NCBI GenBank assembly: GCA_030648055.1
Contig: JAUSHI010000007.1
Coordinates: forward strand, 49,621-113,620
Direction: 5' to 3'
DNA: 64,000 nt
Origin: a bacterium
GTDB taxonomy: Bacteria; Patescibacteriota; Minisyncoccia; Sungbacterales; SURF-37
Part shown: positions 11,371 to 64,000 of the stretch, piece by piece
Layout: each line of letters begins with the position of its first letter
How positions within the stretch are numbered: the stretch's first letter is position 1
Translations under genes and position numbers: made by a program
Notes under the pieces: model-generated
What the model was told of the DNA's origin: nothing
Databases searched by the model: none
Seen by the model: the letters and a program-made list of their open reading frames with translations, nothing else

Positions 11371-11515
11371 CCCCCCGCCAATTTTGCAGGGCGTACCCCG
11401 GCAAAGCGCTTCGCCCATATGGGATGTGCTATTCGCACACGCGCTTCGCACAAGTTATACATGCGCATCTTTCCTCCAATTTTTACAATTTCTGACGGCA
11501 AAATTGGAAGGGGAT
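11371..11515 (+). repeat. Hairpin element family B, copy B2
   Basis: Terminal inverted repeats CCCCCCGCCAATTTTGC and GGCAAAATTGGAAGGGGA. Core GGCAAAGCGCTTCG..GGGATGTGCTATTCGCACACGCGCTTCGC. The inner hairpin GTGC-TATTC-GCAC is a paired 1-bp shortening of B1's GTGCC-TATTC-GGCAC. Confidence 0.8.
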
Positions 11516-13067: not shown

Positions 13068-13690
13068 TCGCTTTGGGGAGAGTATTAAAGGAAGCGCTTA
13101 AGCGCCACTTTTTATTTTGTAGCCGCGCCTTCGCAATGAAAAATTTTTGCTACTGCTCCGCTAATATATAATATGAAATAAAAAAGCCCTGATTCATTCG
13201 GGGTTTTGTGTTGCGCGCCCTGCGCATTTTTCCGCTTTAGCACTATAAGAAAACAGTGGTTCAAGAAAACGAACAATAAGCCGCTCACCAATCTCACGAG
13301 TATTATTGTTGTGTGAATATTCGAGAGAACACAAGCATGCGACAAGCACAAACCACTTTTACATGGATTAATTTTCCCAAAACATACCGCAAATAAGCGC
13401 GCCCACATCCGGCGCGAAGCGACCCGTAATCGCAATCGCTCCTCTCACCCGTCTCTTAAAGACACCGGTCTATCTCTCTGAAAAAACCAGACAATCGTCC
13501 GGATATGGCCTGGTTGGTATAAATAGGGCTAATGATACTGTCAATTTTGACAACCGCATTGCGCCTTGCTACGAATGGTTTATCACAATTCATAGAACAT
13601 GAAGCTCATAGCATAAAAAACACTGCGTAAAACATCTAACACAGAACAGGCGCGTGCTCCATGTTTTATGTTATATGTGTTATAACACTT

Positions 13691-15211
13691 ATGGTCAAAC
13701 TCTCCTCCGCGCAACTTACCGGACTCGACGCAACAATCATAACAGTAGAAGTGGACCTATCGCCCGGCCTTCACATTTTTTCAATTGTCGGCCTCGCCGA
13801 TAAAGAAATTCAGGAGTCCCGCGAACGGATAGGCGCGGCGGTAAAAAATATCGGCGGCAGAGCTCCGCACAAAAAAGCCCAGCGTATAATAGTCAACCTC
13901 GCCCCGGCCGACATAAAAAAAGAAGGGCCGGCTTTTGATTTGCCCATTGCTCTTGGTTTTTTGCTTGCCTCGGAACAGACAAGATTCAATCCGGAAGGAA
14001 AACTGTTTTTAGGCGAGCTCGGACTAGACGGTTCGGTAAAACCGATACGCGGGGCGCTCGCTTCAACAATTGAGGCAAAAAAACATTCTTTCAAAACTAT
14101 TTATGTTCCAAAAGGCAACGGAAACGAGGCCGCCCTTGTCGGAGGCATTGAGGTCAAAGAAGTGGGAAGCATACTGGAACTTCTTGATGATCTGGAAAAT
14201 AAAAAAGAAATTGCCGCGCACATCCGTGAAGAAAAAGCAGGAGAAGATATTATTTTTTCTAATTTTTCATTAATCAAGGGACAGGAACACGCCAAACGCG
14301 CTCTGGAAATCGCCGCCGCTGGGGGGCATAATCTTCTAATGCAGGGGCCTCCGGGCACGGGCAAAACCATTCTTGCCCGTTCACTTCCTGAAATCCTTCC
14401 AAAACTCTCATACGAAGAAACAATTGAAGTTACAAAAATTTACAGCGCTACCGGATTTTTAAAAGCAAGCGATGAGGCTGTCATTAAACGGCCCTTCCGT
14501 TCGCCTCACCACACCGCCTCCCCCGTTTCAATCGCCGGAGGAGGAAACCCGATGCGCCCGGGAGAAATAACGCTTGCCCATCGCGGAGTTCTTTTTCTTG
14601 ATGAACTGCCGGAATTCCAATCAAACGTGCTTGAGGCTCTTCGCGAACCTCTAGAAGAGCGCGTCATCACCGTATCGCGCGCGCAAGGAACCGTCGCGTT
14701 TCCGGCACATATAATTTTAGTCGGGGCAATGAACCCGTGCCCGTGCGGACACTTGAATAATCCTCCCCATGAATGCGTCTGCACGCCAGGCCAAATTACA
14801 AAATACCAAAGAAAAATATCAGGCCCGTTGCTCGACCGCATTGACTTATTTATTGAAGTGCCGCCGGTAGAAATCAAAAAAATTGATGAAGAACACCAGG
14901 AAACGAACGAGGCGGAAGCGGCCCGGCAAAGAGTGAAAAAGGCGCGGGGAATCCAGCGCGAACGATTTTTAAACGAAAAACTTCTTACCAACTCCGAAAT
15001 GGGCCTTCGCGAAATTAAAAAATACTGCCCGCTTAATGAAGAAACTAAAAAAATCCTGCGCCAGGCCTACGAACAATACGCCATGTCGGTGCGCTCATAT
15101 TACCGAACCATCAAAACCGCGCGCACCATCGCCGATCTCGCCGAATCTCAAAACATAGAAACACCCCATCTCCTTGAAGCCCTTCAGTATCGAGCCAGAG
15201 TAGAAATTTAA
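13691..15211 (+). CDS. comM: Mg-chelatase-like AAA+ ATPase, YifB/ComM family
   Basis: Start chosen at ATG 13691 (MVKLSSAQLTGLDA). Walker A GPPGTGKT, Walker B VLFLDELPEF, ChlI-like core. Confidence 0.85.
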   Translation: MVKLSSAQLTGLDATIITVEVDLSPGLHIFSIVGLADKEIQESRERIGAAVKNIGGRAPHKKAQRIIVNLAPADIKKEGPAFDLPIALGFLLASEQTRFNPEGKLFLGELGLDGSVKPIRGALASTIEAKKHSFKTIYVPKGNGNEAALVGGIEVKEVGSILELLDDLENKKEIAAHIREEKAGEDIIFSNFSLIKGQEHAKRALEIAAAGGHNLLMQGPPGTGKTILARSLPEILPKLSYEETIEVTKIYSATGFLKASDEAVIKRPFRSPHHTASPVSIAGGGNPMRPGEITLAHRGVLFLDELPEFQSNVLEALREPLEERVITVSRAQGTVAFPAHIILVGAMNPCPCGHLNNPPHECVCTPGQITKYQRKISGPLLDRIDLFIEVPPVEIKKIDEEHQETNEAEAARQRVKKARGIQRERFLNEKLLTNSEMGLREIKKYCPLNEETKKILRQAYEQYAMSVRSYYRTIKTARTIADLAESQNIETPHLLEALQYRARVEI

Positions 15212-15295: not shown

Positions 15296-15388
15296 ATGGC
15301 ATTTAGAGCCTACCTCGCCGAATCCCAAAACATAGAAACGCCTCATCTTTTGGAGGCGCTGCAATATCGGGCAAAGGTTGAGATATAA
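15296..15388 (+). pseudogene. Displaced, diverged duplicate of the comM 3' end
   Basis: Encodes MAFRAYLAESQNIETPHLLEALQYRAKVEI*, versus the true C-terminus ..IADLAESQNIETPHLLEALQYRARVEI*. A 26-nt near-identical core occurs at 15137-15162 and 15314-15339. Confidence 0.7.
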
Positions 15389-17677: not shown

Positions 17678-19648
17678 ATGGACTCCATCCTGGAAGGCTT
17701 AAACAACAAACAGCTTGAAGCGGTAACGGCCGTAGAAGGACCGGTATTGATAATTGCCGGGGCCGGCTCCGGAAAAACAAAGGCCCTCACGCACCGGGTG
17801 GCCCATTTAATATCACGCGGGATAAACCCATCATCAATTCTCGCGGTCACCTTCACCAATAAAGCGGCGGATGAGATGAAGACAAGAATCGCCGACCTCT
17901 TAAAAAAACACACTGCCAAAGAATCTCCAAAACTATTCCAAAAAGGAACGGCATCGCCTTTCGTCGGGACTTTTCACTCTCTTTGCGTATCAATCCTCCG
18001 TGAAGAATGCTCCAAAATAAAATTTCAAAGAAATTTCTCAATTTTTGATGAGGATGATTCGCTTTCACTCTTAAAAGAAATCATAAAAGAATTTAACATC
18101 TCTACCAAACAATACCCGCCGGGCATGGTCAGACACACGATCTCTAACCTAAAAAATGAACTAATAAGCGACGAAGAATATTCGGTCACGGCCGGAGAAG
18201 AAATTTTCTCAAAAAATGTTTCAAAAGTTTATGCCGAGTATCAGACGCGCCTGAAAAAAGCCAACGCTTTTGACTTTGATGATTTAATAACAAGCGTGGT
18301 GCGTATCTTCAAAGAAAATCCGGATGTCCTAAAAAAATACCAAGAACGCTTCTCCTACATCCACGTGGACGAATTTCAAGATACCAATATGCCCCAATAT
18401 CTTCTGGTCAGCCTTCTTACCAAATCGCGAGGAAACATCTTTGTTATCGGAGACGACGCGCAATCAATTTATTCATGGCGCGGAGCCGACATGCGAAACA
18501 TTTATAACTTTGAAAAAGAATGGCCTAACACCAAAGTCATACTTTTGGAACAAAATTACCGCTCAACCCAGACGATTTTGGGCGCGGCGAATGATTTAAT
18601 CACCAACAACCCCAGCCAAAAAAAGAAAAATCTATGGACGGAAAACACGGCCGGAGAACCGATAACCCTGATTTCAACCGAAAGCGAGCGGCATGAAGCA
18701 GGGCTAATCGCTGAAGAAATAATTCACTCAATTGAAAATGAAAAGCGCAAACCAAACGACTTTGCCGTACTGTATCGCACCAACGCTCAATCGCGATCAT
18801 TGGAAGAAGCACTACTTGATTCCTCCCTACCCTATGTCATCATCGGCGGCATTAAATTTTTCCAAAGAAGAGAAGTCAAAGACATCGTCGCTTATCTAAG
18901 ATTTCTGCAAAATCCTTCGGATAGCATCAGTTTAAAAAGAATAATAAACCTTCCTCCGCGCGGCATCGGGAGGGTTGCTTTCTTAAATTACATCGGGGGA
19001 GTAAGCGGAAAAAACGGAAGGAAAGAAAAAATAATTTTAGAAAAATTTGAAAGCCTCGTTGAAAAATTGCGCGAAGAACTGGAAAAAAATAATCTCTCAC
19101 AATTCATAAAAACATTAATAAAAAAAATAAATTACCGCGAGTATCTTGATGACGGATCTAATGAGGCCGAGATGCGCTGGGAAAATGTTCAAGAACTTGT
19201 AAGTTTAGCCAAACGCTTTGACAATGTCCCAACAAAAGAGGGGCTCGTGGAACTTCTAAGCGATATCGCGCTTGTGTCTTACGACGACGCGGACAAAACA
19301 GGCCCGAAAGAAAAAATATCACTGATGACCCTGCACGCGGCAAAAGGCCTTGAATTTCCGGTTGTTTTTATCGCCGGACTTGAAGAGGGTATTTTTCCCC
19401 ATTCCAAATCACTTTTAGAGCCCTCCTCACTTGAAGAAGAACGGCGCCTTTGCTATGTGGGAATCACCAGAGCCAAAGAAAAACTTTATCTTTTATGGGC
19501 AGGAAGAAGAACAATCTTCGGCGAAATACAGGCTAATATTCCTTCACGCTTCATAAAAGAAATACCGGAAAAATATCTGGAGGTTTCTGAAACAAGAAAC
19601 ACGGAACAAGGCGGCGGAGAATACGAAGACGAATCTCTTATTTTTTAA
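17678..19648 (+). CDS. pcrA: ATP-dependent DNA helicase, PcrA/UvrD family
   Basis: Walker A AGAGSGKT. Helicase motifs TFTNKAADEM, VDEFQDTN, QNYRST and VGITRAK. Confidence 0.9.
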   Translation: MDSILEGLNNKQLEAVTAVEGPVLIIAGAGSGKTKALTHRVAHLISRGINPSSILAVTFTNKAADEMKTRIADLLKKHTAKESPKLFQKGTASPFVGTFHSLCVSILREECSKIKFQRNFSIFDEDDSLSLLKEIIKEFNISTKQYPPGMVRHTISNLKNELISDEEYSVTAGEEIFSKNVSKVYAEYQTRLKKANAFDFDDLITSVVRIFKENPDVLKKYQERFSYIHVDEFQDTNMPQYLLVSLLTKSRGNIFVIGDDAQSIYSWRGADMRNIYNFEKEWPNTKVILLEQNYRSTQTILGAANDLITNNPSQKKKNLWTENTAGEPITLISTESERHEAGLIAEEIIHSIENEKRKPNDFAVLYRTNAQSRSLEEALLDSSLPYVIIGGIKFFQRREVKDIVAYLRFLQNPSDSISLKRIINLPPRGIGRVAFLNYIGGVSGKNGRKEKIILEKFESLVEKLREELEKNNLSQFIKTLIKKINYREYLDDGSNEAEMRWENVQELVSLAKRFDNVPTKEGLVELLSDIALVSYDDADKTGPKEKISLMTLHAAKGLEFPVVFIAGLEEGIFPHSKSLLEPSSLEEERRLCYVGITRAKEKLYLLWAGRRTIFGEIQANIPSRFIKEIPEKYLEVSETRNTEQGGGEYEDESLIF

Positions 19649-19650
19649 TT

Positions 19651-19760
19651 CCGTTAGAAGCCGCGGTCGCGGTACGAAAAACATCAAAATATGACTATAA
19701 TTGAGGAAAATTATAAGATCAATAATCAGCGGGTACTAACCGCGGCCTGCTTCTAACGGG
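19651..19760 (+). repeat. Hairpin element family A, copy A1
   Basis: Left arm CCGTTAGAAGCCGCGGTCGCGGTAC, right arm GTACTAACCGCGGCCTGCTTCTAACGGG. It fills the whole pcrA-rsmA spacer and ends at the rsmA ATG. Contains a 21-codon ORF at 19691-19756. Confidence 0.8.
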
Positions 19761-20546
19761 ATGAAGCCAAACAAACTTCTCGGACAACATTTTTTAAAAA
19801 ACAAAAAGGTGATTGAAATAATGATAAGGGCCGCAAAAAACGAGCCTGCTGTTGAGTATGTGCTTGAAATCGGACCGGGCCACGGAGTCCTCACGCGAGC
19901 CCTCGCTGAAAAGTTTAAGCATGTTATCGCCATAGAAAAAGATGCATGGCTTGCCGGAGAGTTGGCAAAAAAATTAAACACTGAAAAAATAACAAATTGC
20001 AAAATTATCGCTGGCGATATATTAAAAATAAATTTCCAAAAACTTCTTGGCAAGGCTCCATATGCGGTAATCGCAAATATCCCTTATTACCTTACCGGCC
20101 GCCTTATTCGCCTGCTCTTAGAAACAAAACATAGGCCCTCCTACATAATTTTAATGGTGCAAAAAGAAGTCGCCGAACGAATTACCGCTGGTCCGCCGGA
20201 AATGAATATGCTCGCCCTGTCGGTACAGGCTTTCGGAAAGCCGCGGATTATGGAACACGTTTCAAAAAAAGAATTTTCTCCGCCGCCGCAGGTTGATTCG
20301 GCCATAATAAAAATTTCGGGAATTTCTGAAAAATTTTTTGTTAAAAATAAAATTTCCGAAAAAGAGTTTTTCGCCATAATACGCGCCACCTTTTCTCAAA
20401 AAAGAAAGCGCCTCGCCAATACGCTTGCGAAATTCTACGGAGACAAAAAAATCGCCGAAGAAAAAATAAAAAAAACGGGCCTCTCTAAAAACGCCCGCCC
20501 GCAAGAGCTTACGCTCAAAAAATGGCTTAAACTCTCTGATAAGTAA
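19761..20546 (+). CDS. rsmA: 16S rRNA (adenine1518/1519-N6)-dimethyltransferase
   Basis: LGQHFL, SAM motif EIGPGHGVLT and ANIPYY. Confidence 0.9.
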   Translation: MKPNKLLGQHFLKNKKVIEIMIRAAKNEPAVEYVLEIGPGHGVLTRALAEKFKHVIAIEKDAWLAGELAKKLNTEKITNCKIIAGDILKINFQKLLGKAPYAVIANIPYYLTGRLIRLLLETKHRPSYIILMVQKEVAERITAGPPEMNMLALSVQAFGKPRIMEHVSKKEFSPPPQVDSAIIKISGISEKFFVKNKISEKEFFAIIRATFSQKRKRLANTLAKFYGDKKIAEEKIKKTGLSKNARPQELTLKKWLKLSDK

Positions 20547-20553
20547 GGCGAAA

Positions 20554-21762
20554 TTACCCACAACCGCATACTTCCGTCATGGGATCCCAAATCACACCCT
20601 GATATCCAGCATCATAACAAGAATTAATACACCCCAACGTATCTAATCCTGAGCAATTAGTTACAACGTAACAGCAGGTTTTCCCGGCAAGATTCACTCC
20701 GGGTGTTTTTGGATTTCCTCCTTCAACGTAACAGACCGGCATGACACCACAGTAAAAATAACAATACGCATTGGCATTAGGAATAGTAAAAATTTCTTTC
20801 AGCATTTTTATGTAATCTCTCAAATTCCACGAAAGTATAACCCCCCGCGGGGTGTCGTAAGAAAGAAGCCCAGCCGAAGAGTTAAAAAAGGCGCTCTTCC
20901 CGCTGTTTAATATGGCATTAATGTCATCATTATATCCTTGCGAGCGCATCAACTCCTGAAATTCCTTTAATGCTTCTTCGCGCGAAACCTTTTGTGCTGA
21001 AGGCGGAACCAAAATACGCCCTTCGTTTATTGCCTTTGCCACAGCCGCCTCTCTCAACTTAAACTCATACGGACGATCATAAAAATTCTCCGCATTCTTA
21101 AATGCTTCATACCGTTCTTTCGTAATATACCCCTTGTCAAAAAGATATTTCCTCACCACAAGATTAAACGCCCTCATTTCTTGCTCAGACTTAAATTCGT
21201 ACTTACTCTCCTGTTGCATCACCCCCTCGCTTATAAGAAAATCCTGAACCTGCCTAAGGCCCGCTATGTAATAATCTGGATAAAGGGTGTTAAAAACCTC
21301 CTCCTTGGTGAGAGTTTTGGTTAAGCTCGCAATGACTCTTTCAATATCATTGCCCACCAAAGCGCTATTTAACTCTTTCGCTTCAAAAAGCCCGGCGGGA
21401 TTTCCTTGACTTTCCTTAAGAAAATCTAAAACGTTTTGGGAAGTAAGTCGCGCTACGGCTGACGAAATTAACGGCTTCAAATCTTGAGTAATTACGCCGT
21501 AAAAATCCGTTGTTATGCCAAAAAGCGGCCGTTTTTGTGTTTCAAAAACACCAGTTAAGCCTATCTTCCCTGGGTCCTGAACACCTTCCGATGTGCTCCC
21601 TACTTTTTCTGGAACATTCAGAGCTTTTCCGCCCCCAGACACCGGGAGGCCGTCGCCGTTTAGTGTCGCAACTGGCCCGGAAGAACGAAAAAACAAAATA
21701 CCAAGAGCGACGCCGCCCACAATCAACACCACCGTAGCCAAAACAACAATACGCTTATCCAT
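20554..21762 (-). CDS. Membrane-anchored hypothetical protein with a cysteine-rich C-terminal module
   Basis: N-terminal TM IVVLATVVLIVGGVALGILFF. The last ~75 aa contain 11 Cys (..CYFYCGVMPVCY..KTCCYVVTNCSGLDTLGCINSCY..VCGCG). Confidence 0.55.
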   Translation of the reverse strand: MDKRIVVLATVVLIVGGVALGILFFRSSGPVATLNGDGLPVSGGGKALNVPEKVGSTSEGVQDPGKIGLTGVFETQKRPLFGITTDFYGVITQDLKPLISSAVARLTSQNVLDFLKESQGNPAGLFEAKELNSALVGNDIERVIASLTKTLTKEEVFNTLYPDYYIAGLRQVQDFLISEGVMQQESKYEFKSEQEMRAFNLVVRKYLFDKGYITKERYEAFKNAENFYDRPYEFKLREAAVAKAINEGRILVPPSAQKVSREEALKEFQELMRSQGYNDDINAILNSGKSAFFNSSAGLLSYDTPRGVILSWNLRDYIKMLKEIFTIPNANAYCYFYCGVMPVCYVEGGNPKTPGVNLAGKTCCYVVTNCSGLDTLGCINSCYDAGYQGVIWDPMTEVCGCG

Positions 21763-21804
21763 GACACAATAATTATACCGTGAGCCGCTCCAAAAGCATA
21801 TTGG

Positions 21805-21834
21805 TTATCCACAGAAAAGCGTTTTTTATACACA
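21805..21834 (+). promoter_or_regulatory. DnaA-box-like pair in a divergent promoter region
   Basis: Perfect TTATCCACA at 21805-21813 and one-mismatch TTATACACA at 21826-21834. Confidence 0.4.
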
Positions 21835-21854
21835 ATTGTACTATAATTAAACCA

Positions 21855-22865
21855 ATGAGAAATAATAGGTTTTCTTGGAAAACTCTAATCCTTGGTAAGA
21901 GGTTGCTTTTGCTTCTCGTCCTGCTTGTCGCAATGTCAGCCGTGGTTATTCTGGTAGTACCTTTTGGACCGCGCGGAAAAAAGAATATTGCCTTCACGCC
22001 CCCTAAAACAAAAGAAGAAGCATTAGCCAATCTCAATAGAGATTCTGACAATGACGGACTAAAAGATTGGGAAGAAAAAATTTACGCGACCGACCCCGCC
22101 AACGCCGATACTGACGGCGACAGCACTCCTGACGGCCAAGAACTTAAAGACGGCAGAAACCCTTTAAAACCCGGGCCAGACGACAAACTTGAAATACCTC
22201 TGCCCCAGCCTGAAAACAACAATAAAACCGAACTGCTCGCAAGCAGTATTGCCAGCAAATCGCTTACAAAAATTGTAATTCAGGCCGCGAATGGAGAATC
22301 AGTGAACAACGCGCTTGATGAATTCAAAGACCCAAAAGAAATAGACAATCTGATTGCATCTCTGGGTAAAGAACAGCCGTTAGACAAAGTTATCCAGCCC
22401 CAATTAAAAGAACTCATCACAACTGCCGATAATTCCCCGGAGGCGGTAAAAAAATATTTCAACACCATCGCCAAAATTCAGCTTGTTAACTTTTTAAATA
22501 TGGAAAGCGACATAAGCATTTTATACCTTGCCCAGTCTTCCGGAAACGTGAAGGCTTTCCGGCGGCTTGACGCAAATATTGCCACCATTGAAAAAGTCAT
22601 CGCGGAAATAAAACAAACACCGGTGCCGACCAAATGGGTCTCTTTCGCGAAAAATCTCGTCTGGTATCTTTCAAAAACTCTCGCCGCGGTAAAAATACTC
22701 CGCGACACCGAAAATGATCCGGTCTCGTCTCTTCTTATCCTTCAGGGCCGCATACAACTTATTGACGACTTCGCGAACCTATATCAGGACACAAAATTAC
22801 AACTCACCGGAATAGATTTTTCGGAAAACGAGCCGGCTTATGGCCTATTTCTTAAAATAAAATGA
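21855..22865 (+). CDS. Membrane-anchored protein with thrombospondin type-3-like Ca-binding repeats
   Basis: Start chosen at ATG 21855 (MRNNRFSWK.., with a TM). DSDNDGLKDWEE and DTDGDSTPDGQE repeats. Confidence 0.55.
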   Translation: MRNNRFSWKTLILGKRLLLLLVLLVAMSAVVILVVPFGPRGKKNIAFTPPKTKEEALANLNRDSDNDGLKDWEEKIYATDPANADTDGDSTPDGQELKDGRNPLKPGPDDKLEIPLPQPENNNKTELLASSIASKSLTKIVIQAANGESVNNALDEFKDPKEIDNLIASLGKEQPLDKVIQPQLKELITTADNSPEAVKKYFNTIAKIQLVNFLNMESDISILYLAQSSGNVKAFRRLDANIATIEKVIAEIKQTPVPTKWVSFAKNLVWYLSKTLAAVKILRDTENDPVSSLLILQGRIQLIDDFANLYQDTKLQLTGIDFSENEPAYGLFLKIK

Positions 22866-24670
22866 GTATACTTTCTTTTGACCACAAATCAATAATCGCG
22901 GGGGTACTTCTCTTCGTAGTAATGGCAGGCTTAATTTTGGCGCCACTCACCATAAGAGCCGTGGTGACAACCGAAAGCCCATCGGAAATTGCCAAACTCG
23001 TAACCCTCATCGGCAACGCGGTTAAACAACTTGCCGAGCTAATTTTTCAAAGTGGCCAGCTTAGTTCTCTCAACACCTACTTTATTGTTTGGAAGCCGGC
23101 GGTAAAATTTCTTTCCTCCTTGATTCTCAAAGCGCTCACCGAAAGCATCATCAGGTGGATCCAAGACGGAGGCAATACCAATTTCGTATCAAATCTCCAG
23201 GGCGCGCTTGTGAGAGCCGCGGATGAGGCCGCTGGGGAGTTTCTAAATTATTTTGCAGGAATAAACTTATGCGGTCCCATAGCCAACCCCTTGCGGGGCA
23301 TACTAAGAATACCGAGATTAAGTCTGGACTCCCGCTTAAGCTGTACCGCGACAGGCATTTTCGCGAATCTCCAAACAACTTACCAAGAATTTTTGAACGA
23401 TTTCACCAGTGGCGGCTGGATTGCTTATGAATCAACATTTTACGGCAGTAACAATTACATTGATGGCCTAATTAATTCAATTGACGCAAAACTTGAAGCC
23501 GAGTCGCGACGAACAGCGATAGTGCAGGCAAGATTTGACGCGGGACAAGGATTCCTAGGCATAACTGTCAAAAAGCAAGACTGTAGAAATGCACTACCGG
23601 ATAACACCTATAATGACGGAAGTCTTATCTGCGAAACCGTGGATGTACAAACAACGCCCGGCCGACTCGTTGCCGATACATTATCAAAAGCTGTCGGCTC
23701 GGGCATTGATCAGGCAGTCAACATAAACGATATTGGCCAGGCGCTTGACGCAATAATCGGCGCGCTCATCTACAAACTCGTCACTTCAGCGCAAGCCGGT
23801 CTTTTTTCAAACAATGAACAAAGCGGACTATTTGATCGCGACCTTCTATTAATACCTTCGCCTGAAGAAACACCGCCCATACCTTCACCCCAAGGAACGC
23901 CGCCAATGCCTACGCCTCAAGGAACGCCTCCCGACTTGTATATCTCCACAAGCCCGACACCAATTCAAACAAACATCCTCGCCGGAGATTTGATAGAGTT
24001 TTCTGGCACAATAAAAAACCAAGGGGGAACGGCAATTAATACTCCGTTTAACGCAAGGTTTAAGATTGACGTGGATGATGACGGAACTTTTGATGAAACA
24101 ATAAACGCAAATTCACTAATTTTTAATGTTCCTGCCGGCGGAGAAGTGAAAGTAACTTCAGTATCATGGAGAGCGTCCAACGGTACGCACCGAGTTATAC
24201 TCTGCGCGGAGGCTCTTCCTGCGGAAGCATTGCAAGAAAATAACTGCAGTTTAGGCGGGACCGGAATTTTCGCTGTGGGGCAAAAACCCGATCTTACAAT
24301 ATCCGAAAACCCATCAATATATTCAGGAATACCAAACCCCGGTCAATTAATAATTTTCAAAGGCGAAATTAAAAACCAAGGCGGAGCCGCGGCAACAGCA
24401 ACATCAACATTTGAAAATCGCTTCCAAATAGACCTCAACAATGACGGTACAACCGATATAACTCTCTCCCCGAATCCGACCATAGCCAGTCTCGCCGCGG
24501 GTGCTACACAAACAATTATTTCTCCATCCTGGTCGGCAATTCTGGGCACACACCGAGTAATTCTATGCGCCGACATACCAAGCCGGGTAATAACCGAATC
24601 AGATGAACTTAATAATTGCAATCCGGCGGGTACCGGATTATTTACCATTGGACCTTTTATCTCGCCATAA
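22862..24670 (+). CDS. Membrane-anchored surface protein with a Pro-rich linker and two CARDB/Ig-like repeats
   Basis: Start overlaps the previous stop (ATGA). N-terminal TM. PSPEETPPIPSPQGTPPMPTPQGTPP linker. Two ~115-aa internal repeats (..KNQGG..THRVILCA..NNC..GTG.F..G). Confidence 0.6.
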   Translation: MSILSFDHKSIIAGVLLFVVMAGLILAPLTIRAVVTTESPSEIAKLVTLIGNAVKQLAELIFQSGQLSSLNTYFIVWKPAVKFLSSLILKALTESIIRWIQDGGNTNFVSNLQGALVRAADEAAGEFLNYFAGINLCGPIANPLRGILRIPRLSLDSRLSCTATGIFANLQTTYQEFLNDFTSGGWIAYESTFYGSNNYIDGLINSIDAKLEAESRRTAIVQARFDAGQGFLGITVKKQDCRNALPDNTYNDGSLICETVDVQTTPGRLVADTLSKAVGSGIDQAVNINDIGQALDAIIGALIYKLVTSAQAGLFSNNEQSGLFDRDLLLIPSPEETPPIPSPQGTPPMPTPQGTPPDLYISTSPTPIQTNILAGDLIEFSGTIKNQGGTAINTPFNARFKIDVDDDGTFDETINANSLIFNVPAGGEVKVTSVSWRASNGTHRVILCAEALPAEALQENNCSLGGTGIFAVGQKPDLTISENPSIYSGIPNPGQLIIFKGEIKNQGGAAATATSTFENRFQIDLNNDGTTDITLSPNPTIASLAAGATQTIISPSWSAILGTHRVILCADIPSRVITESDELNNCNPAGTGLFTIGPFISP

Positions 24671-24705
24671 CAGCAATAGCAACAACAATTCTTCTTTGGT
24701 TAGCC

Positions 24706-27093: not shown

Positions 27094-27177
27094 TCGCCAA
27101 CGCCTTAAACATTAAACAAACCGCACAAAAAGTGGTTTGTTTAATAAAACCACCGCATGTGTGCACACTATGATAAT

Positions 27178-27206
27178 TTGACAGAAAACTAAAATTAGTT
27201 TATAAT
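27178..27206 (+). promoter_or_regulatory. Perfect-consensus sigma70 promoter
   Basis: TTGACA (27178-27183), 17-nt spacer, TATAAT (27201-27206). Confidence 0.7.
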
Positions 27207-27272
27207 TCATATAATACCTTAAAAACCAGCGCTTAAAACAACCCGCAATTATAGCCAGACGGAGGGCTAAAG

Positions 27273-27647
27273 ATGACCTCAGAAGAGATCGTTGCCCAAG
27301 TGAGGAAAAACAAAGAAGCGGCAAACCCGAAAAAGTGCGCGCCGGAATGCCCGACCGCGGACATGACCGTCTTCTGGACGCTCAGCATCGGCGGAGTGGT
27401 AGGCCTGATTCTCATTGCCGCAATCGCCGCCATGGAGCGCCCGGCGGCCCTCCTCCCGCTCGTCCTCGTCTTCGGAGTCCCTATGTTCATGGGCCTCCGC
27501 AAGATGTACAAGTTTTTAACCACTGGCACTTCGGTGATGGAAGGCTATCTACGGCGTCTTTTCACCGGCTACGGCATCTTCATCGCCATAGCTCTCACCG
27601 GAGGGTCACTGATAATGCTCCCCGCGCTCTTTTCCAAGCTCTTTTAA
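27273..27647 (+). CDS. Small GC-rich membrane protein
   Basis: GGAGGG upstream of the ATG. 124 aa with about 3 hydrophobic helices. G+C is far above the neighbouring sequence, and several frames are open. Confidence 0.5.
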   Translation: MTSEEIVAQVRKNKEAANPKKCAPECPTADMTVFWTLSIGGVVGLILIAAIAAMERPAALLPLVLVFGVPMFMGLRKMYKFLTTGTSVMEGYLRRLFTGYGIFIAIALTGGSLIMLPALFSKLF

Positions 27648-27660
27648 TAACGCCCACCCC

Positions 27661-27688
27661 AAGAGGCGACCAACCGGTCGCCTCTTTT
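27661..27688 (+). terminator. Rho-independent terminator
   Basis: 11-bp stem AAGAGGCGACC/GGTCGCCTCTT followed by TTTT. Confidence 0.75.
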
Positions 27689-27691
27689 GCT

Positions 27692-27700
27692 TTATCCACA
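27692..27700 (+). promoter_or_regulatory. Perfect DnaA box sequence
   Basis: TTATCCACA. Confidence 0.3.
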
Positions 27701-27734
27701 CCACCCCAAAAGTGCATATTTTAGTGTTTTCTTG

Positions 27735-27848
27735 CCCCGTACTAAAAATGGCCTTTCCCACGCGTCTTTGTAGCCGATTGCTGGAATTCTCCATTATGAA
27801 ACGACTTAGCAGAAAGGTAAAATAACTGTGCCATTTTTTAGTACGGGG
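27735..27848. repeat. Long-range inverted repeat (hairpin D)
   Basis: CCCCGTACTAAAAATGGC (27735-27752) pairs with GCCATTTTTTAGTACGGGG (27830-27848). An extended -10-like TGGTATAAT follows at 27851-27859. Confidence 0.65.
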
Positions 27849-27906
27849 TGTGGTATAATACAAATAATGCCCTCAAAAGAAGGTATGTAGAAATAGTTTA
27901 ATTAAA

Positions 27907-28025
27907 CCCCGTTAGAAGTAGGACGCGAGTGCACATTTCATTAGAGATTCTTCATGATTATAAAGTTGCCCATACTTGAGAATTTGTCTCTAACGAGAGT
28001 AAGCGTCCGCGACTTCTAAACGGGG
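27907..28025 (+). repeat. Hairpin element family A, copy A2
   Basis: Left arm CCCCGTTAGAAGTAGGACGCGAGTGC, right arm GTAAGCGTCCGCGACTTCTAAACGGGG. Contains a 21-codon ORF at 27954-28019. Confidence 0.75.
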
Positions 28026-28042
28026 TAAAGAGGTGCGGCCTT

Positions 28043-28103
28043 GGTTTTAAGTGTTTTATCTGTATTTGCAAGACAGCGTCGCGGCAAATACAGCCATAAA
28101 ACC
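28043..28103. repeat. Hairpin E
   Basis: CTGTATTTGC (28060-28069) pairs with GCAAATACAG (28083-28092). Outer pairing GGTTTTA/TAAAACC. Confidence 0.6.
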
Positions 28104-32403: not shown

Positions 32404-32497
32404 AAATTAATCCTATTAGAGATCCAAACGTTATACACTGCAATTAATATAAAATACACTATAAAAATCCGGATTGTTTATTATTCTTCACTAATAA

Positions 32498-33037
32498 ATG
32501 GAAATCTTTGATTTCCTATCTCTAACGGGATTAAATTTTACCCCAATGAACGGCATACAGGCACCAACAAATCAAAAATCTCCGGCGAACGATACCCCGT
32601 GGCAAAACGAAAAACTTGCGCGCGCGCCGAAGCAAGCGGAAGCAAAAACACCATCGCCTCAAACCAAAATTTCCGTTGCAATGGGCGGACTTCTTATCGC
32701 AACCGCCTTATTTTTTGACGGCGGACAGTTTGTTCTTGAAGCCTTAACCGGACTTACCGCCGTTCTTCTACCGCTTGGAATTGCTCTTAGTTGGGCAATT
32801 GACGCGATTGCTTGGCTAACTTTTTTCTTATGGTTTCACTCCCTCGGATTAGGTACAATAAAGAAAGGCGGACCCGGAGAAACCACCCTAAATCAGGCGC
32901 CGTTTGTTATCATCGCGTTTGCCCTGGGCATTGAAATAATACCTTTCGTAAACATGCTCCCGGCGTGGACCGCGGCTATCGTAATCGTAATAGTAAAAGA
33001 GCGGGTATTGGCGCTCGCACAACAAAAAAACAAATGA
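32498..33037 (+). CDS. Integral membrane protein (T4SS-locus associated)
   Basis: 179 aa with about 4 hydrophobic helices after a polar N-terminus. Its stop overlaps the next start (ATGA). Confidence 0.5.
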   Translation: MEIFDFLSLTGLNFTPMNGIQAPTNQKSPANDTPWQNEKLARAPKQAEAKTPSPQTKISVAMGGLLIATALFFDGGQFVLEALTGLTAVLLPLGIALSWAIDAIAWLTFFLWFHSLGLGTIKKGGPGETTLNQAPFVIIAFALGIEIIPFVNMLPAWTAAIVIVIVKERVLALAQQKNK

Positions 33038-34005: not shown

Positions 34006-34018
34006 CAAACTTATGAAT

Positions 34019-34137
34019 CCCGTTAGAAACCGCGGTCGCAGTACGTAAAATAAATATCATCAAAATTATGAAGGAAAAAATTATAAACCATCAATATAAT
34101 AACCAGCAGGCGCTGACCGCGACCTGTTTCTAACGGG
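34019..34137 (+). repeat. Hairpin element family A, copy A3
   Basis: Left arm CCCGTTAGAAACCGCGGTCGCAGTAC, right arm ..GCTGACCGCGACCTGTTTCTAACGGG. Ends at the ATG of the pilin-like gene. Contains a 21-codon ORF at 34068-34133. Confidence 0.8.
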
Positions 34138-34545
34138 ATGAAATTCTTTCTTTTTTCCGTTGCCTTTATCGCCGTGTTAGTTCTTGCCCCTGCCGCAAGC
34201 CATGTATCTTTGGCTGAACCTAACCCCACGAGCATAGTTGTACCCACATCAATAACATCGGGAACCACCGGCGCAAAACCCACCACAGCAACAGGCTACC
34301 TTGATTATCTTTATACATGGATGCTGGGATTTGTGGGTATTGCCGCGCTTTTTGCTATAGTTTATGGCGGAGTGCTTTATATTTTCTCAGGGGCTATTGA
34401 GTCAACCGCTGAAGCGCGAAGGTGGATTACCAACGCCATTATAGGCCTCCTTATTGCCGGCGGCTCTTACGTTATTCTTCGCACCATAAACCCAGATCTG
34501 GTTAAAAAATTTGATGTGCAAACCATTATCCAAAAAAATAGATAA
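34138..34545 (+). CDS. VirB2/TrbC-like pilin candidate
   Basis: Signal peptide MKFFLFSVAFIAVLVLAPAASHVSLA followed by two hydrophobic helices (MLGFVGIAALFAIVYGGVLYIF and IIGLLIAGGSYVIL). Located in the T4SS locus. Confidence 0.5.
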   Translation: MKFFLFSVAFIAVLVLAPAASHVSLAEPNPTSIVVPTSITSGTTGAKPTTATGYLDYLYTWMLGFVGIAALFAIVYGGVLYIFSGAIESTAEARRWITNAIIGLLIAGGSYVILRTINPDLVKKFDVQTIIQKNR

Positions 34546-37075: not shown

Positions 37076-37213
37076 AATGTTTAGAGATAGAAAGTCAAAA
37101 GTCTGCGTCTATTAACGTTAAAATAATAAATAGTCTTAGTTTTTATAATATAATTTATACTGCTTGCGACACATAACGCTTGGATCTCTAGCAGAACTCA
37201 TTGAATTTTAAAT

Positions 37214-63197: not shown

Positions 63198-63281
63198 AAA
63201 TAAAATAGCGGCGGGCGTAATACACCTATCATTATTTATTGAGAGAATGTTTAAATAATTATTGGGATTTATTTTCTTGAT

Positions 63282-63418
63282 CCTGTAGTGAAAGTTCGAA
63301 TTTGTCGCTGTAGGCGACCAAATATGAAATCGCTATTGGGATCAAACAAATTTAACTAATTTATTGAATAAGATTATGGACAAGTGAACTGTTTCATAAT
63401 TTGAACTTCTACTACGGG
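63282..63418 (+). repeat. Long-range inverted repeat, possible diverged family-A copy (A4)
   Basis: CCTGTAGTGAAAGTTCGAATTTG (63282-63304) pairs (about 20 bp including G-U) with CATAATTTGAACTTCTACTACGGG (63395-63418). The right arm ..CTTCTACTACGGG abuts ATG 63419, as in A1 and A3. Confidence 0.5.
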
Positions 63419-64000
63419 ATGAATACATTTGATTTACAAATTCAAACCTCGGCCTCTGATGGCCGATACACGTCGCGCGAACTTGTTAAGCGCGCCTCGC
63501 TTTTAAAATTAAAAACCATAGCCATAACCGATCACGACACCGTATCCGGAGTTTCCGAGGCGCTATCTGCTGGCGAGGATTACGGCGTTGAAGTTATTCC
63601 TGGAATTGAAATTTCCGCGCACGATGAAGCCGGCGATTTTCACATACTCGCTTTTGGCTTTGATTATAAAAATCCGGCACTTCTTCAGGCACTGGAAGAA
63701 GCCCAGCGCGTAAGGGTTGGGAGGGCAAAAGAAATGGTTGGGTGGCTTCAGAAAATCGGTTTTCAGATAACTTATGAGGATGTGCTACGTTATGCCACCG
63801 GCTCATCGGTAGGCAGGCCGCATATCGCCTCAGCCATACTCGCGAACCCCGAGAACAAAAAAATGCTTGAAGGAATTAATAATGTCGGAAGTTTTATAAG
63901 AGCTTATCTTGTGCCCGGAAAAGGAGCTTATGTTAGTCATGAAAATATATCGGTGCAATCAACGATAAGTTTGGTTCATCAGGCGCGAGGGGTTGCCGTG
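63419..64000 (+). CDS. PHP-domain phosphoesterase-like protein (partial, runs off the window)
   Basis: MNTFDLQIQTSASDG.. and ..IAITDHDT..GIEISAHD. The canonical DLHxHT histidines read Q..Q here. Confidence 0.6.
   Translation, partial: MNTFDLQIQTSASDGRYTSRELVKRASLLKLKTIAITDHDTVSGVSEALSAGEDYGVEVIPGIEISAHDEAGDFHILAFGFDYKNPALLQALEEAQRVRVGRAKEMVGWLQKIGFQITYEDVLRYATGSSVGRPHIASAILANPENKKMLEGINNVGSFIRAYLVPGKGAYVSHENISVQSTISLVHQARGVAV

Follow-up and report, generated by a model that had tools for sequence, protein, structure and literature searches.

MITE-like hairpin elements with shared 11-bp ends at the start codons of genes in Patescibacteria

The hairpins that recur in the window (the whole 64-kb stretch of DNA analyzed here) are MITE-like, non-autonomous mobile elements, members of a superfamily defined by 11-bp terminal inverted repeats. 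Many copies lie exactly on the first codon of a gene, and from comparison of their sequences we consider it probable that this MITE-like transposon is tolerated at start codons through a translational relay. In the relay that we propose, the transcript would still begin at the old AUG of the gene or would run on from the upstream gene, and ribosomes would translate a short frame of the element, either as one open reading frame (ORF) that opens at the old AUG and spans the entire hairpin or as two, a short first ORF and another with its start in the loop. Translation of this frame would melt the right arm of the hairpin, termination would occur at a UAA 4 nt before the rebuilt start or at a UGA overlapping it, and the ribosome would then re-initiate on the gene. 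Through this re-initiation, the insertion could be tolerated even before essential genes.

Genomes of Patescibacteria are tiny and gene-dense, with almost no spare DNA, and to our knowledge little is known of mobile DNA in this group; a literature search on the arm sequences and on MITEs of the CPR found no relevant description. The elements would be a very widespread MITE superfamily in Patescibacteria, present here at about four to six copies per 64 kb. Their harmlessness would be unusual, as an element lands on a start codon, rebuilds it, and appears to keep the gene translated via the relay ORF. Start-codon calls and the annotation of "intergenic hairpins" in CPR genomes are both affected. 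The retained ATGs and their spacing from -10 boxes make up a large natural data set on leaderless genes in an uncultivated radiation, and the elements themselves are natural experiments in termination-reinitiation. Saccharibacteria can now be manipulated genetically (PMC10633639), and the conserved 11-bp ends provide a concrete handle for finding the transposase.

Hairpin elements of the window

An earlier note on this DNA had described three copies of a hairpin family and a diverged fourth. With the family covariance model, the window contains three copies (A1, A2, and A3) and one related copy (B1), which adds to the note's list (Table 1). A1 and A3 are homologous and, as had been claimed, can be aligned over their full length (blastn, 75% identity, E 4e-17); A2 belongs to the same family in reverse orientation, and the fourth palindrome, A4, is not demonstrably related to it. 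The element sequences are as the note described them, except that each element is one base longer at either end (Y...R). All four regions fold as long hairpins (z -4.9 to -6.2), and none of 200 shuffles was as stable.

Table 1. Coordinates of hairpin elements and associated features in the 64-kb window
Feature	Position	Strand	Remarks
UvrD/PcrA-like helicase stop codon	19646..19648	+	gene = 17678-19648
A1 (family A)	19649..19761	+	Y=T 19649, R=A 19761; covariance model 92 bits
A1 arms	19650-19659 (left); 19751-19760 (right)		left = TCCGTTAGAA, first C mutated; right = TTCTAACGGG
A1 internal ORF	19691..19756	+	21 codons, MTIIEENYKINNQRVLTAACF
rsmA/ksgA, 16S rRNA dimethyladenosine transferase	19761..20546	+	Pfam match from residue 4
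A2 (family A/C member, opposite orientation)	27907..28025	-	Y=C 27907, R=G 28025
B1 (related sub-family)	32411..32530	+	arms CCTATTAGAG...CTCTAACGGG; covariance model E 0.003
A3 retained original ATG and its 11-codon ORF	34013..34048 (ATG 34013-34015)	+	MNPVRNRGRST
A3 (family A)	34018..34138	+	Y=T 34018, R=A 34138; covariance model 109 bits
A3 arms	34019-34028; 34128-34137	+	
A3 second ORF	34068..34133	+	21 codons, MKEKIINHQYNNQQALTATCF
T4SS-pilin-like gene	34138..34545	+	start codon rebuilt by A3
B2, decayed B1 relative	37081..37202	-	81 nt, 72% complementary to 32405-32485
A4 palindrome	63281..63419	+	arms CCTGTAGTGAAAG.../...CTTCTACTACGGG, T...A ends

The last base of A1 doubles as the A of the rsmA ATG, and the stop codon of its internal ORF (TAA, 19754-19756) lies inside the right arm, with the rsmA ATG 4 nt further on. 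The rsmA start is confirmed by the Pfam match at residue 4 together with orthologues that begin ATGAAG or ATGAAC; no exact match to the RsmA of the window is on record. The left end of A1 is degenerate: the left repeat TTAA (19645-19648) overlaps the helicase stop and agrees with the right repeat TGAA (19762-19765) at three of four positions. A3 likewise provides the A (34138) of the ATG of the pilin-like gene, and its target duplication is an exact 4-bp TGAA (34014-34017 and 34139-34142). The 11-codon ORF that opens at the retained ATG of A3 crosses the left arm and terminates in the loop; the second ORF begins 19 nt past that stop and ends at a TAA (34131-34133) 4 nt upstream of the pilin-like ATG.

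A2 scores 60 bits on the minus strand versus 40 bits on the plus strand. It has an exact TAAA duplication (27903-27906 and 28026-28029) and a right arm with a 1-nt insertion (TTCTAAACGGG), shares only termini of about 20 nt with the family by blastn, and does not adjoin any gene start. Given this orientation and position, the plus-strand 21-codon ORF of A2 represents the antisense strand of the family. Thus, although the three 21-codon ORFs reported earlier all translate as quoted and stop at the TAA of the arm, the one in A2 is antisense and does not stand as a uORF. B1 is flanked by an exact TTAA duplication (32407-32410 and 32531-32534) and ends 16 nt 5' of the true start of the next gene, ATG 32546, which is fixed by an orthologue. 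B2 lies upstream of the gene at 36344-37075 and is not significant with the family model (E 0.38).

A4 was rejected as a family member, since blastn returned nothing and the covariance model gave 10 bits (E 1.3). It has only its architecture in common with the family, namely, a palindrome with T...A ends, a 3-bp TGA repeat (63278-63280 and 63420-63422), and contact with an ATG, that of a PHP-domain gene. A relaxed search of 1.7 Mb for arms of the A4 type found none, and with 2 mismatches allowed it failed to recover even A4. Elsewhere in the window, we saw no single arms scattered through the sequence and found no tRNA or tmRNA; leaderless spacing is common among its genes, and few of them have a Shine-Dalgarno (SD) sequence. 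Rfam, searched at gathering thresholds over the whole window and at E<=1 over 19500-34300, gave no match on the elements.

Termini, target duplication, and mobility

The elements run 5'-(T/C)CCCGTTAGAA...TTCTAACGGG(A/G)-3', i.e., Y-CCCGTTAGAA...TTCTAACGGG-R. The YCCCGTTAGAA/TTCTAACGGGR termini are invariant in the family alignment, and in 121 of 128 copies the terminal Y and R complement each other. Between the termini, the sequence varies; it is mostly palindromic, and its center is AT-rich. Copies measure 24 to 130 nt, those of the long class 100 to 130 nt, and their ORFs have only 13 to 40 codons and no conserved peptide; small size without coding capacity for a transposase is a mark of MITEs. 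The paired changes that the note had observed in the terminal stem are real and extend to the 30 family members, in which 97.5% of the stem cells are paired and six pairs have changed on both sides (none of 500 shuffles was as high). Such covariation would also be expected if the two ends bind one transposase. A comparison of G.U with A.C mismatches as a sign of constraint on the sense-strand RNA, with the flanks excluded, gave 18 versus 13, which is not significant; an initial count of 36 versus 13 was discarded as inflated by flank positions set by codon usage. The ORF points towards the gene in all 30 copies of family A, and both orientations are found in the other sub-families. Sub-family D carries a conserved (C/T)TGAAATTA...TATA(A/T)A(A/T) module 17 to 18 nt before a GTG and, at its opposite end, a terminator-like hairpin.

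The target duplication is 4 bp, with the consensus TNNA, and is mostly TGAA. Exact 4-bp direct repeats flank the element in 81 of 128 cases among long copies and in 69 of 129 among short copies, compared with about 12 (maximum, 23) when flanks are permuted, and the repeats differ from copy to copy. Other boundary models failed: a 5-bp or 6-bp duplication on copies of the C:G type (ATGAAC...GTGAA), a 2-bp duplication on the TGAG and TATG cases, and an origin of the Y/R bases as P nucleotides. Orthologous sites lacking the element are found in relatives. The A1 site is empty in L001 and L002 (68 to 69% helicase identity), whose uvrD-rsmA junctions read TAA-8 nt-ATGAAG and TAA-c-ATGAAC; the A3 site is empty in L246, where the pilin start reads TAA-10 nt-ATGAAA; and the B1 site is empty in L248. 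The pilin start of L248 has an independent insertion of a different sub-family, with the duplication TGAG. The gene of L003 considered as a match for the pilin is not its orthologue, and this locus was therefore left out of the A3 comparison.

The same termini occur at at least 119 genome loci, mostly from many lineages of Patescibacteria, and at at least 120 metagenome loci, against a chance expectation of a few tens, a rough estimate rather than a computed value. Near-identical pairs of copies are present at L119, L075, L111, L155, and L151, and in L119 and L111 such copies lie at different genes of one genome. At L090, one copy has within it a second, mini copy of 24 nt that is flanked by a duplication of its own. 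Collectively, shared inverted repeats, target duplication, empty orthologous sites, and multiple copies, some of them recent, are the marks of a MITE. Among viral contigs there were only two matches. Elsewhere, two arms enclose a tRNA-Ala gene (L110), and two identical 38-nt copies bracket a toxin-antitoxin pair (L155).

A search of arm pairs 400 to 5000 nt apart in about 1.7 Mb of loci found neither an autonomous copy nor a transposase, so that the mechanism of transposition is read from its footprints only. The CCC...TAGAA termini and the 4-bp T..A duplication suggest a transposase of the IS1380/piggyBac superfamily, which we offer as a guess. The ends of piggyBac read TTAA|CCCTAGAAAG..., with a 4-bp duplication, and within the target tetranucleotide it is the first T and the last A on which recognition depends (PMC7351741). 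Among prokaryotes, its relative is IS1380 (PMC10813416). The elements here, at TNNA|Y|CCCGTTAGAA(A/G), have the CC(C) termini and a duplication within the 4- to 5-bp range that characterize this superfamily, with the first T and last A of the duplication conserved. Unlike piggyBac, they have an extra Y/R base between the duplication and CCC, and the two central bases of the target are free rather than fixed as in TTAA. With no transposase gene found, the link to piggyBac and IS1380 is one of resemblance only.

Bacterial MITEs such as the Correia elements (CREE) of Neisseria lie beside genes, are co-transcribed with them, and alter their expression (PMC2649163, PMC2229807, PMC10969869). The elements described here are like them in coding for no transposase, in their size of 100 to 160 bp, in inverted repeats that form a long hairpin, in a short target duplication, and in having many copies with filled and empty sites between relatives. 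CREE, however, have 26-bp repeats of another sequence, a TA duplication, and an IHF site (PMC2649163), and act via promoters at their ends and RNase III, whereas the present elements have 11-bp repeats (YCCCGTTAGAA) and a 4-bp TNNA duplication, which sets them apart from the Correia class; they also end on the first base of a start codon and span many phylum-level lineages rather than one genus. Mycobacterial MIRUs share tetranucleotide direct repeats, filled and empty sites, and a position between genes of one transcript, and the ends of their small ORFs overlap neighboring genes, suggesting preserved translational coupling (PMC3184786, citing Supply et al. 1997). They are 40- to 100-bp units, often in tandem, with weak inverted repeats and known from mycobacteria only, and unlike the elements here they neither rebuild start codons nor occupy the 5' end of leaderless genes. 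The REP2 repeats of Neisseria and the plasmid repeats of Borrelia also lie directly 5' of genes and bring expression signals that include the ATG (PMC3184786), but in them the ATG is complete and comes with a promoter and a ribosome binding site; the present element has no ribosome binding site and gives only the first base of the start, the target duplication giving the rest. The Rickettsia palindromic elements (RPE) are likewise palindromic, mobile, and made harmless at the level of translation (PMC10969869). RPE insert in frame inside genes and are translated within the protein, whereas here the element ORF stops just before the gene, and frames that would fuse the retained ATG to the gene do not stay open (0 of 15).

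Start codons and element-borne ORFs

Among 127 copies, 79 abut an ORF of at least 60 codons that begins with the last base of the element (R) followed by the duplicated TG; the junction without spacer that the note had reported at rsmA (19761), the pilin-like gene (34138), and the PHP gene (63419) is real and recurs elsewhere. Long copies (100 to 130 nt) in Patescibacteria are mostly at the first codons of genes, where insertion uses the TGAA of ATGAA as its target. Consequently, the old ATG stays at the left of the element, and at the right the element's last purine and the duplicated TG make a new ATG or GTG before an intact gene. In 57 of 80 oriented copies, the original ATG is retained six bases to the left (-6 to -4). 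A TANNNT box lies 6 to 7 nt 5' of the retained ATG in 17 cases versus 2.6 expected (p 1e-9), so that in many target genes a -10 box stands at leaderless spacing from the old ATG; others are tightly coupled to the upstream gene, as rsmA is to uvrD. The downstream genes represent 113 Pfam families, including aminoacyl-tRNA synthetases, topoisomerase, FtsW, ClpP, L1, and SecDF. Abutted starts lack an SD sequence, as previously noted, the 10 nt before them being taken up by the fixed arm TTCTAACGGG. Copies away from gene starts number 48 of 128, in addition to A2 and B1. Short copies (24 to 52 nt, from metagenomes) abut a gene start in only 6 of 127 cases, so placement is not an invariant property of the termini; placement at stop codons is also rare, a long ORF ending in the repeat in only 10 of 127.

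A short ORF that ends within 4 nt of a start lacking an SD sequence, or overlaps it as ATGA, is the geometry of termination-reinitiation systems and gives coupling in bacteria and archaea; it requires overlaps or very short distances (PMC6728339, PMC10666635). The elements display this geometry, with a TAA 4 nt before R-TG or a TGA overlapping it as ATGA, and no SD sequence. They differ from known coupling ORFs in that the ORF is on a mobile element and is often opened by the gene's duplicated original start. The earlier suggestion of termination-reinitiation gains comparative support from family A, in which 17 of 30 copies have a 19- to 26-codon ATG ORF ending at the TAA of the arm, 4 nt before the start, compared with 4 on the antisense strand and a mean of 1.2 (maximum, 5 in 1000) with shuffled interiors. 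The presence in relatives of an ORF that stops 4 nt short of the start is statistically real, and coupling is therefore a reasonable mechanism. In 6 of the 30 copies, no ATG ORF crosses the right arm in any frame.

Reading from the retained ATG leads through the whole element in 19 of 57 copies, versus 5.5 +/- 2.2 in shuffles, and this read-through depends on element length modulo 3 (Fisher p 0.001). It is seen in 14 of 24 copies whose frame would end at the TAA 4 nt before the start, in 5 of 18 whose frame would end at the TGA of ATGA (19 of 42 for both stop types), and in none of the 15 in which the ORF would continue into the gene as a fusion. Read-through is lacking in 38 copies, of which 16 have a second ORF that terminates at the start codon; its ATG follows the first stop at distances of -4, -4, -4, 1, 6, 12, 13, 13, 14, 14, 19, and so on. 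The 21-codon ORFs of the window are of this second, loop-started kind. The relay pattern is present in 15 of 19 copies with a leaderless-type promoter versus 20 of 38 others. Overall, an ATG ORF of 12 codons or more that ends at the start or runs in frame into the gene is present in 51 of 80 copies, in 44 of which it ends at one of the two stops, and about 36% of start-abutting copies have no ATG ORF across the right arm. Two copies outside these statistics also fit the pattern, L080:3759-3886 and that of L248, with a 38-codon read-through. In A1, the left end and repeat are degenerate (TTAA versus TGAA) and no old ATG is retained, and its loop ORF would need de novo initiation without an SD sequence, 42 nt past the uvrD stop.

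A bolder reading, which we regard as unlikely though worth stating, is that the insertions are more than tolerated, with a piggyBac/IS1380-like transposase actively directing the elements to the first codons of genes that are leaderless or tightly coupled. It would recognize an unpaired T..A tetranucleotide at the site of transcription or translation start, and the elements would be portable start-codon cassettes across Patescibacteria. Were this so, each insertion would make translation of a leaderless gene dependent on a hairpin-unwinding relay ORF, and if excision is seamless, as in piggyBac, the conversion would be precisely reversible. The elements would then form a mobile, reversible layer of translational control in minimal genomes.

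Alternative readings

A MITE carrying a promoter or terminator would act through an outward promoter inside the element; the hairpin would never be in that mRNA, and the ORFs would be incidental. The loops are AT-rich and contain TATAAT-like hexamers, the module and hairpin of sub-family D resemble a promoter and a terminator, and there are analogues in Correia elements (PMC2649163) and in Neisseria REP2 and Borrelia repeats (PMC3184786). The family A alignment, however, has no positionally conserved -10, a consensus scan of the plus strand found no promoter close to the right end of A1 or of A3, and TANNNT before the loop ATG, at 9 of 32 versus a background of 15.5%, is not significant (p 0.08). 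A promoter in the right arm would give a leader of about 10 nt without an SD sequence, and a promoter alone leaves unexplained both the dependence on length modulo 3 and the ORFs that end exactly at the start. We therefore think this possible but not likely; the MITE-like element supplying a promoter, which the note had named as an alternative, was the correct class, and promoter supply is plausible for sub-family D but not upheld for family A. Somewhat less credible is RNA processing, in which RNase III-type cleavage at the 11- to 13-bp basal stem would free a 5'-monophosphate leaderless mRNA whose first codon is the rebuilt AUG or GUG. Even very distant lineages have the same basal stem sequence, and the target genes are often leaderless, so that processing would cost no more than a "5' exon" of 5 nt. 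Patescibacteria have kept RNase III among their nucleases (PMC12641178), this enzyme binds or cleaves Correia elements (PMC2649163), and the arms around the tRNA-Ala gene of L110 are arranged like a processing stem. Nevertheless, transposase binding sites are a simpler account of invariant termini, the sense-strand G.U bias is not significant, and the ORF statistics are left unexplained.

The note's own preference was a dedicated cis-regulatory RNA, which would be vertically inherited and gene specific, with the start codon occluded and then opened by uORF translation. Very stable hairpins, covarying pairing, a uORF ending 4 nt before the start, and the missing SD sequence all speak for it. 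However, the stem includes no more of the start codon than its R and T, and in the closest relatives the orthologous uvrD-rsmA, pilin, and upstream-gene junctions lack the element. Target duplications flank the copies, which precede more than 100 unrelated gene families (113 in Pfam) rather than a single class and also occur off gene starts, and Rfam has no match even at E<=1. As a gene-specific regulator this RNA is largely refuted, and the reading as a whole is very improbable. Recombination or uptake sites, such as integron attC-like sites, CRISPR-like repeats, or DNA-uptake sequences, are less credible still. An attC site has R'' (RYYYAAC) at its 5' end and R' (GTTRRRY) at its 3' end, and its cassettes form an array beside an integrase. 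The GTTAGAA/TTCTAAC of the arms does resemble these core motifs, and both the copies around the toxin-antitoxin pair of L155 and the tandem units of L183 recall recombination sites. The order here is nevertheless GTT...AAC on both strands, the reverse of AAC...GTT in attC, and the copies are dispersed at gene starts. We saw no arrays with unique spacers, single arms are not scattered in the window, and flanking direct repeats vary between copies. The L183 units are a plain tandem duplication, with identical "spacers".

Insertion footprint and family membership

The nearest relatives of the UvrD/PcrA-like protein adjoining A1, the hairpin that precedes rsmA, are labelled Candidatus Sungbacteria or Sungiibacteriota, which makes the source a CPR/Patescibacteria member of Parcubacteria type. 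In two retrieved loci, L001 and L002 (helicase identity 68-69%), uvrD and rsmA are adjacent without an element between them (junctions TAA-attttcac-ATGAAG and TAA-c-ATGAAC, respectively), and these junctions show A1 to be an insertion between stop and start codon, not a conserved leader. In a third locus, L003 (63% identity), the spacer is 63 nt long and unrelated. The A3 site is empty in L246, where the pilin start is TAA-atttttgctt-ATGAAAATT, and the site of B1, a copy from the related sub-family B, is empty in L248, whose spacer aligns with the window spacer as reconstructed. At the start of the pilin-like gene that has A3 in the window, L248 carries an independent insertion, a B-type element with arms CCCGTTAGAG...CTCTAACGGG and duplication TGAG.

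We scanned one genome per GTDB species (596 Gb) with the pattern CCCGTTAGAA-N80-110-TTCTAACGGG and obtained at least 119 loci; by our own estimate, about 20 to 30 matches are expected by chance. Among the matches listed, titles are overwhelmingly those of Patescibacteria from many lineages (Saccharibacteria, Nomura-, Kaiser-, Nealson-, Jorgensen-, Staskawicz-, Levyi-, Berkel-, Kazan, and others), with a minority of Omnitrophota, Planctomycetota, and Deltaproteobacteria-type MAGs. The interiors form several unrelated sub-families, and the ends are invariant. The flanks of 128 listed copies give the structure [NNNN]-Y-CCCGTTAGAA...TTCTAACGGG-R-[NNNN], in which the end base Y is the complement of R (T:A in 68 copies, C:G in 53). 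An exact 4-base direct repeat flanks 81 of these 128 copies, compared with 12 (maximum, 22) when flanks are permuted among copies. Its consensus is T-N-N-A (TGAA/TTCA, 38; TAAA/TTTA, 10; TGAG, 8; TGGA, 7; TATG, 5), and beyond it the target tends to have a base mirroring that at the element's own tip (R-TNNA-Y). A duplication of 2, 5, or 6 bp cannot account for the TGAG and TATG cases or for C:G-type copies (ATGAAC...GTGAA). Short metagenomic copies (24 to 52 nt) share the ends and the 4-bp duplication, which is exact in 69 of 129 listed; they are mostly C:G-type at TAAA, and the gene-start junction is rare among them (6 of 127 listed). In L090, a mini copy of 24 nt (CCCGTTAGAAAATTTTCTAACGGG) is nested within another copy and is flanked by a separate TTTA duplication, and L119 and L111 show near-identical copies at different genes of one genome. 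We consider it very probable that the hairpins are mobile elements. The MITE-like element that the earlier note offered as an alternative was thus the right class, given the duplications, empty sites, and many copies.

The four window regions read as first described, when they were taken to be one four-copy family. That grouping stands for A1 and A3, which are homologous over their full length (75% identity; blastn E = 4e-17), and for A2, whose blastn likeness to them is confined to the ~20-nt termini but which a covariance model, built from 30 family members and run over the window, recovers in the opposite orientation. It does not extend to A4, which has no significant blastn similarity to the other window hairpins and no significant model score. 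All four fold into long hairpins (z = -4.9 to -6.2, equalled by no dinucleotide shuffle), with predicted folds of about -40 kcal/mol for A1 and A3. At the four sites, Rfam gave no match, whether at gathering thresholds or with E <= 1.

Positions of the hairpins and other features in the window and in loci retrieved for comparison
Feature	Sequence	Position	Details
A1	window	19649-19761	covariance model 92 bits, plus strand; flanks TTAA and TGAA (inexact); first C of left arm mutated
A2	window	27907-28025	covariance model 60 bits minus strand, 40 plus; exact duplication TAAA
A3	window	34018-34138	covariance model 109 bits, plus strand; exact duplication TGAA
A4	window	63281-63419	covariance model E 1.3, not significant; 3-bp TGA repeat only
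B1	window	32406-32535	covariance model E 0.003, related copy; exact duplication TTAA
B1-internal ATG frame	window	32498-32545	ATG at 32498; true gene start ATG 32546
Other hairpin families	window	48611-48708 and 51768-51870; 6353-6498 and 11372-11513; 29133-29235; 29297-29342; 27735-27848
Inverted long-range repeats	window	28183-28253 and 51721-51790; 29269-29305 and 51861-51897
Paralogous genes	window	~28251-29132; 50602-51723	plus and minus strand, respectively; no Pfam match
516-aa gene	window	13661-15211
Repeated gene end	window	15131-15211 and 15308-15388	77% identity
ACC/GCC-rich repeats	window	23852-23932; 26856-27110
ORFs with these repeats	window	22862-24670; 24616-27093	second ORF: no Pfam match
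B-type element	L248	2105-2232
Family copy	L080	3759-3886
Copies in -35 boxes	L053; L118	1790-1869; 3436-3562
Arms around tRNA-Ala(cgc)	L110	5058-5165	tRNA gene 5074-5147
Element at tRNA-Leu	L026	1916-2019	tRNA gene 2018-2102
38-nt mini copies	L155	865-902; 1876-1913
Tandem duplication	L183	1-125
Copies in IMG/VR contigs	L124; L125	6554-6671; 8692-8809

Rebuilt start codons and element-borne ORFs

The abutment on a start codon, first seen in the window, proved general: 79 of 127 listed long copies adjoin an ORF of at least 60 codons that opens exactly with R+TG. Eighty downstream proteins match 113 Pfam families, and the named matches are mostly housekeeping (class I and II aaRS, topoisomerase, FtsW, and ClpP; further, ribosomal protein L1, SecDF, PGK, and LytB). 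The six bases left of the element are ATG-NN-Y in 57 of 80 oriented copies, which shows that insertion was within the start codon, the target being TGAA (or TGAG, TGGA, etc.) from its second base. The old ATG is kept on the left; on the right, the terminal purine and the duplicated TG form ATG (T:A-type) or GTG (C:G-type). TANNNT lies 6 to 7 nt before the old ATG in 17 cases versus 2.6 expected (p = 1.4e-9), a spacing that is also that of leaderless transcripts, and many window genes have a -10 box 6 to 9 nt before the ATG, with a clear SD in only four. A1 is an operon variant: the element separates the uvrD stop from the rsmA start, and in relatives these are 1 to 8 nt apart.

The three 21-codon ORFs of A1, A2, and A3 translate exactly as first given, each stopping at the TAA within TTCTAA(A)CGG, and the short frame recurs in homologues. 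On the sense strand, 17 of 30 family A members (the sub-family of A1 and A3) have an ATG ORF of 19 to 26 codons that stops at the arm's TAA; the antisense strand has one in 4 of 30, and shuffled interiors average 1.2 (maximum, 5 in 1000 shuffles). The peptides are not conserved, only frame, length, and end point, and the ORF points towards the gene in 30/30 despite the symmetric ends. Across all sub-families, an ORF from the old ATG crosses the whole element in 19 of 57 copies, compared with 5.5 +/- 2.2 in shuffles (maximum, 14 in 2000) and 9 with the interior reversed. These short ORFs are not due to chance. The most telling test is that of frame. The right arm reads as TTC-TAA (stop 4 nt before the start), as GGR-TGA (overlapping the start in an ATGA junction), or as TCT-AAC-GGG-RTG (in frame into the gene). 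Read-through is found in 14/24 copies whose length leaves a remainder of 1 on division by three (stop at TAA), in 5/18 with a remainder of 2 (stop at TGA), and in 0/15 with a remainder of 0, where it would fuse ~40 residues to the protein (Fisher p = 0.001).

Where read-through does not occur, a second ATG ORF of 10 codons or more, with its stop at the start codon, is present in 16 of 38 copies; it usually starts near the first stop (gaps of -4, -4, -4, 1, 6, 12, 13, 13, 14, 14, 19...). In A3, MNPVRNRGRST* is followed after 19 nt by the 21-codon ORF. A relay, meaning a short element-borne ORF that ends at the start codon, where re-initiation could follow, is present in 15 of 19 copies with a leaderless-type promoter versus 20 of 38 of the rest, and about one third of start-abutting copies are without an ATG relay. 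Copies outside these counts conform, one in L080 and the B-type copy in L248, whose 38-codon read-through ORF runs from the retained ATG to a TAA 4 nt before the start.

A frame opened by an ATG inside B1 continues across the right arm into the downstream gene, which ORF finders therefore lengthen by 16 codons; the L248 orthologue gives the true start. Such over-extended start calls are likely an annotation artefact wherever these elements occur. Copies in L053 and L118 interrupt a TTGACA -35 box at its TTGA; on their right the box is restored, with TATAAT or TATGAT at a good spacing after it, so start codons are not the only motif to be rebuilt.

Proposed termination-reinitiation and relation to known elements

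The analysis shows the elements to be insertions with a footprint and a rebuilt start codon, and ORFs that end at this codon to be in frame-dependent excess; from this we infer how such genes might be expressed. Transcription would begin, as before insertion, with the old AUG or come from the gene upstream. Left closed, an A1 or A3 hairpin would hide the sequence immediately 5' of the start; it would be opened by ribosomes translating the element-borne frame or frames, which would stop no more than 4 nt from the start codon and re-initiate there. Coupling in bacteria and archaea has this geometry and requires the two frames to overlap or lie very close together (PMC6728339, PMC10666635), a requirement that would explain why elements survive before essential genes only when they end exactly on the start codon. 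That translation of the downstream gene is maintained by the relay ORFs is close to an even call, leaning slightly in favor.

The earlier note had proposed a start-occluding structure opened by uORF translation. Its termination-reinitiation component is supported by the comparative ORF statistics, but these favor an adaptation of a mobile element over a dedicated riboregulator. The conserved pairing that it had suggested is borne out by strong covariation in the family; this covariation fits either RNA constraint or two ends co-evolving with one transposase and does not separate them, and a sense-strand G.U test was not significant after removal of flank positions. As to placement, young near-identical copies already at starts argue for insertion preference, and the single orientation of family A for selection. 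The observation is real, and it extends further than the window alone could show.

As a class, the elements are MITEs, agreeing in the features tested except for an autonomous partner: none with matching ends was found among arm pairs 400 to 5000 nt apart in ~1.7 Mb of loci. We found no description of them in the searchable literature. Functionally closest are MIRUs, whose direct repeats are tetranucleotides, whose sites are found both filled and empty, and whose ORFs overlap flanking genes (PMC3184786); Neisseria REP2 and Borrelia repeats, which supply promoter, RBS, and ATG (PMC3184786); Correia elements, which act via promoters and RNase III (PMC2649163); and RPEs, rendered harmless by in-frame translation (PMC10969869). 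All of these lack the ends, TNNA duplication, one-base start-codon contribution, and phylogenetic breadth of the present elements. The ends and 4-bp duplication resemble those of piggyBac, which has ends TTAA|CCCTAGAAAG, a 4-bp duplication, and target recognition by the first T and last A (PMC7351741) and has IS1380 as its prokaryotic relative (PMC10813416). We treat this apparent likeness as a lead; any transposase identity is a guess.

Other repeats and unusual copies

Sub-family D (L014, L059, L078, L111, L120, L070, and others) combines, at opposite ends, a terminator-like hairpin that is perfect and A/T-rich, GGCAGAAAAAATT...AATTTTTTCTGCC, with a conserved, promoter-like (C/T)TGAAATTA-N14-15-TATA(A/T)A(A/T) 17 to 18 nt before the rebuilt GTG. 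It is likely a terminator-plus-promoter cassette, and with this module in place of a relay, interiors appear to have diversified in function.

The other window hairpin families all open with CCC(C) and close with (G)GGG. Two have two copies each (CCCCGCCCTCTATGC...GCTTAGAGGGCGGGG and CCCAGCACCAATTTTGC...GCAAAATTGGTGCGGGG) and three have a single copy (ATCCCCACACCTTCC...GGAAGGTGTGGGGAT, CCCAGCACTTATTTT...AAAATAAGTGCTGGG, and CCCCGTACTAAAAA...TTTTTAGTACGGGG); they may belong to a wider superfamily with different arms. In the window, two paralogous genes share inverted long-range repeats that cover their first codons and the sequence upstream of them. The last 81 nt, stop included, of the 516-aa gene, whose synteny with L003 suggests a Mg-chelatase/ComM-like protein, recur 177 nt downstream, possibly as a remnant of a duplicated gene end. 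Two large ORFs contain low-complexity ACC/GCC-rich coding repeats, Pro/Thr-rich by composition.

In L110, a MAG labelled Bdellovibrionales, arms CCCGTTAGAAA...TTTCTAACGGG enclose a whole tRNA-Ala(cgc) gene with no flanking direct repeat, an arrangement that is either a cargo-carrying copy or processing-stem-like. In L026, an element adjoins the 5' end of a tRNA-Leu gene, with inverted, not direct, flanks (CTCGC/GCGAG) that are acceptor-stem sequence. L183 is a plain tandem duplication of a 50-nt copy plus flanking CTTGC; a CRISPR array was ruled out, as the "spacers" are identical. Two IMG/VR contigs classed as viral (L124 and L125) have full-length copies; they could carry the elements from one lineage to another, or be CPR contigs wrongly classed. 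In the metagenome contig L155, a segment of ~1 kb lies between two mini copies of 38 nt, identical to each other (CCCGTTAGAAATTCCAGCCGGGCATTATTTCTAACGGG; flanks GTAAAC/GTAAAT). By eye, the segment encodes an antitoxin-like and MazF/PemK-like toxin pair; this looks like a cassette because homologous sequence follows each copy. At least five more metagenome contigs carry the 38-mer with a single base changed.
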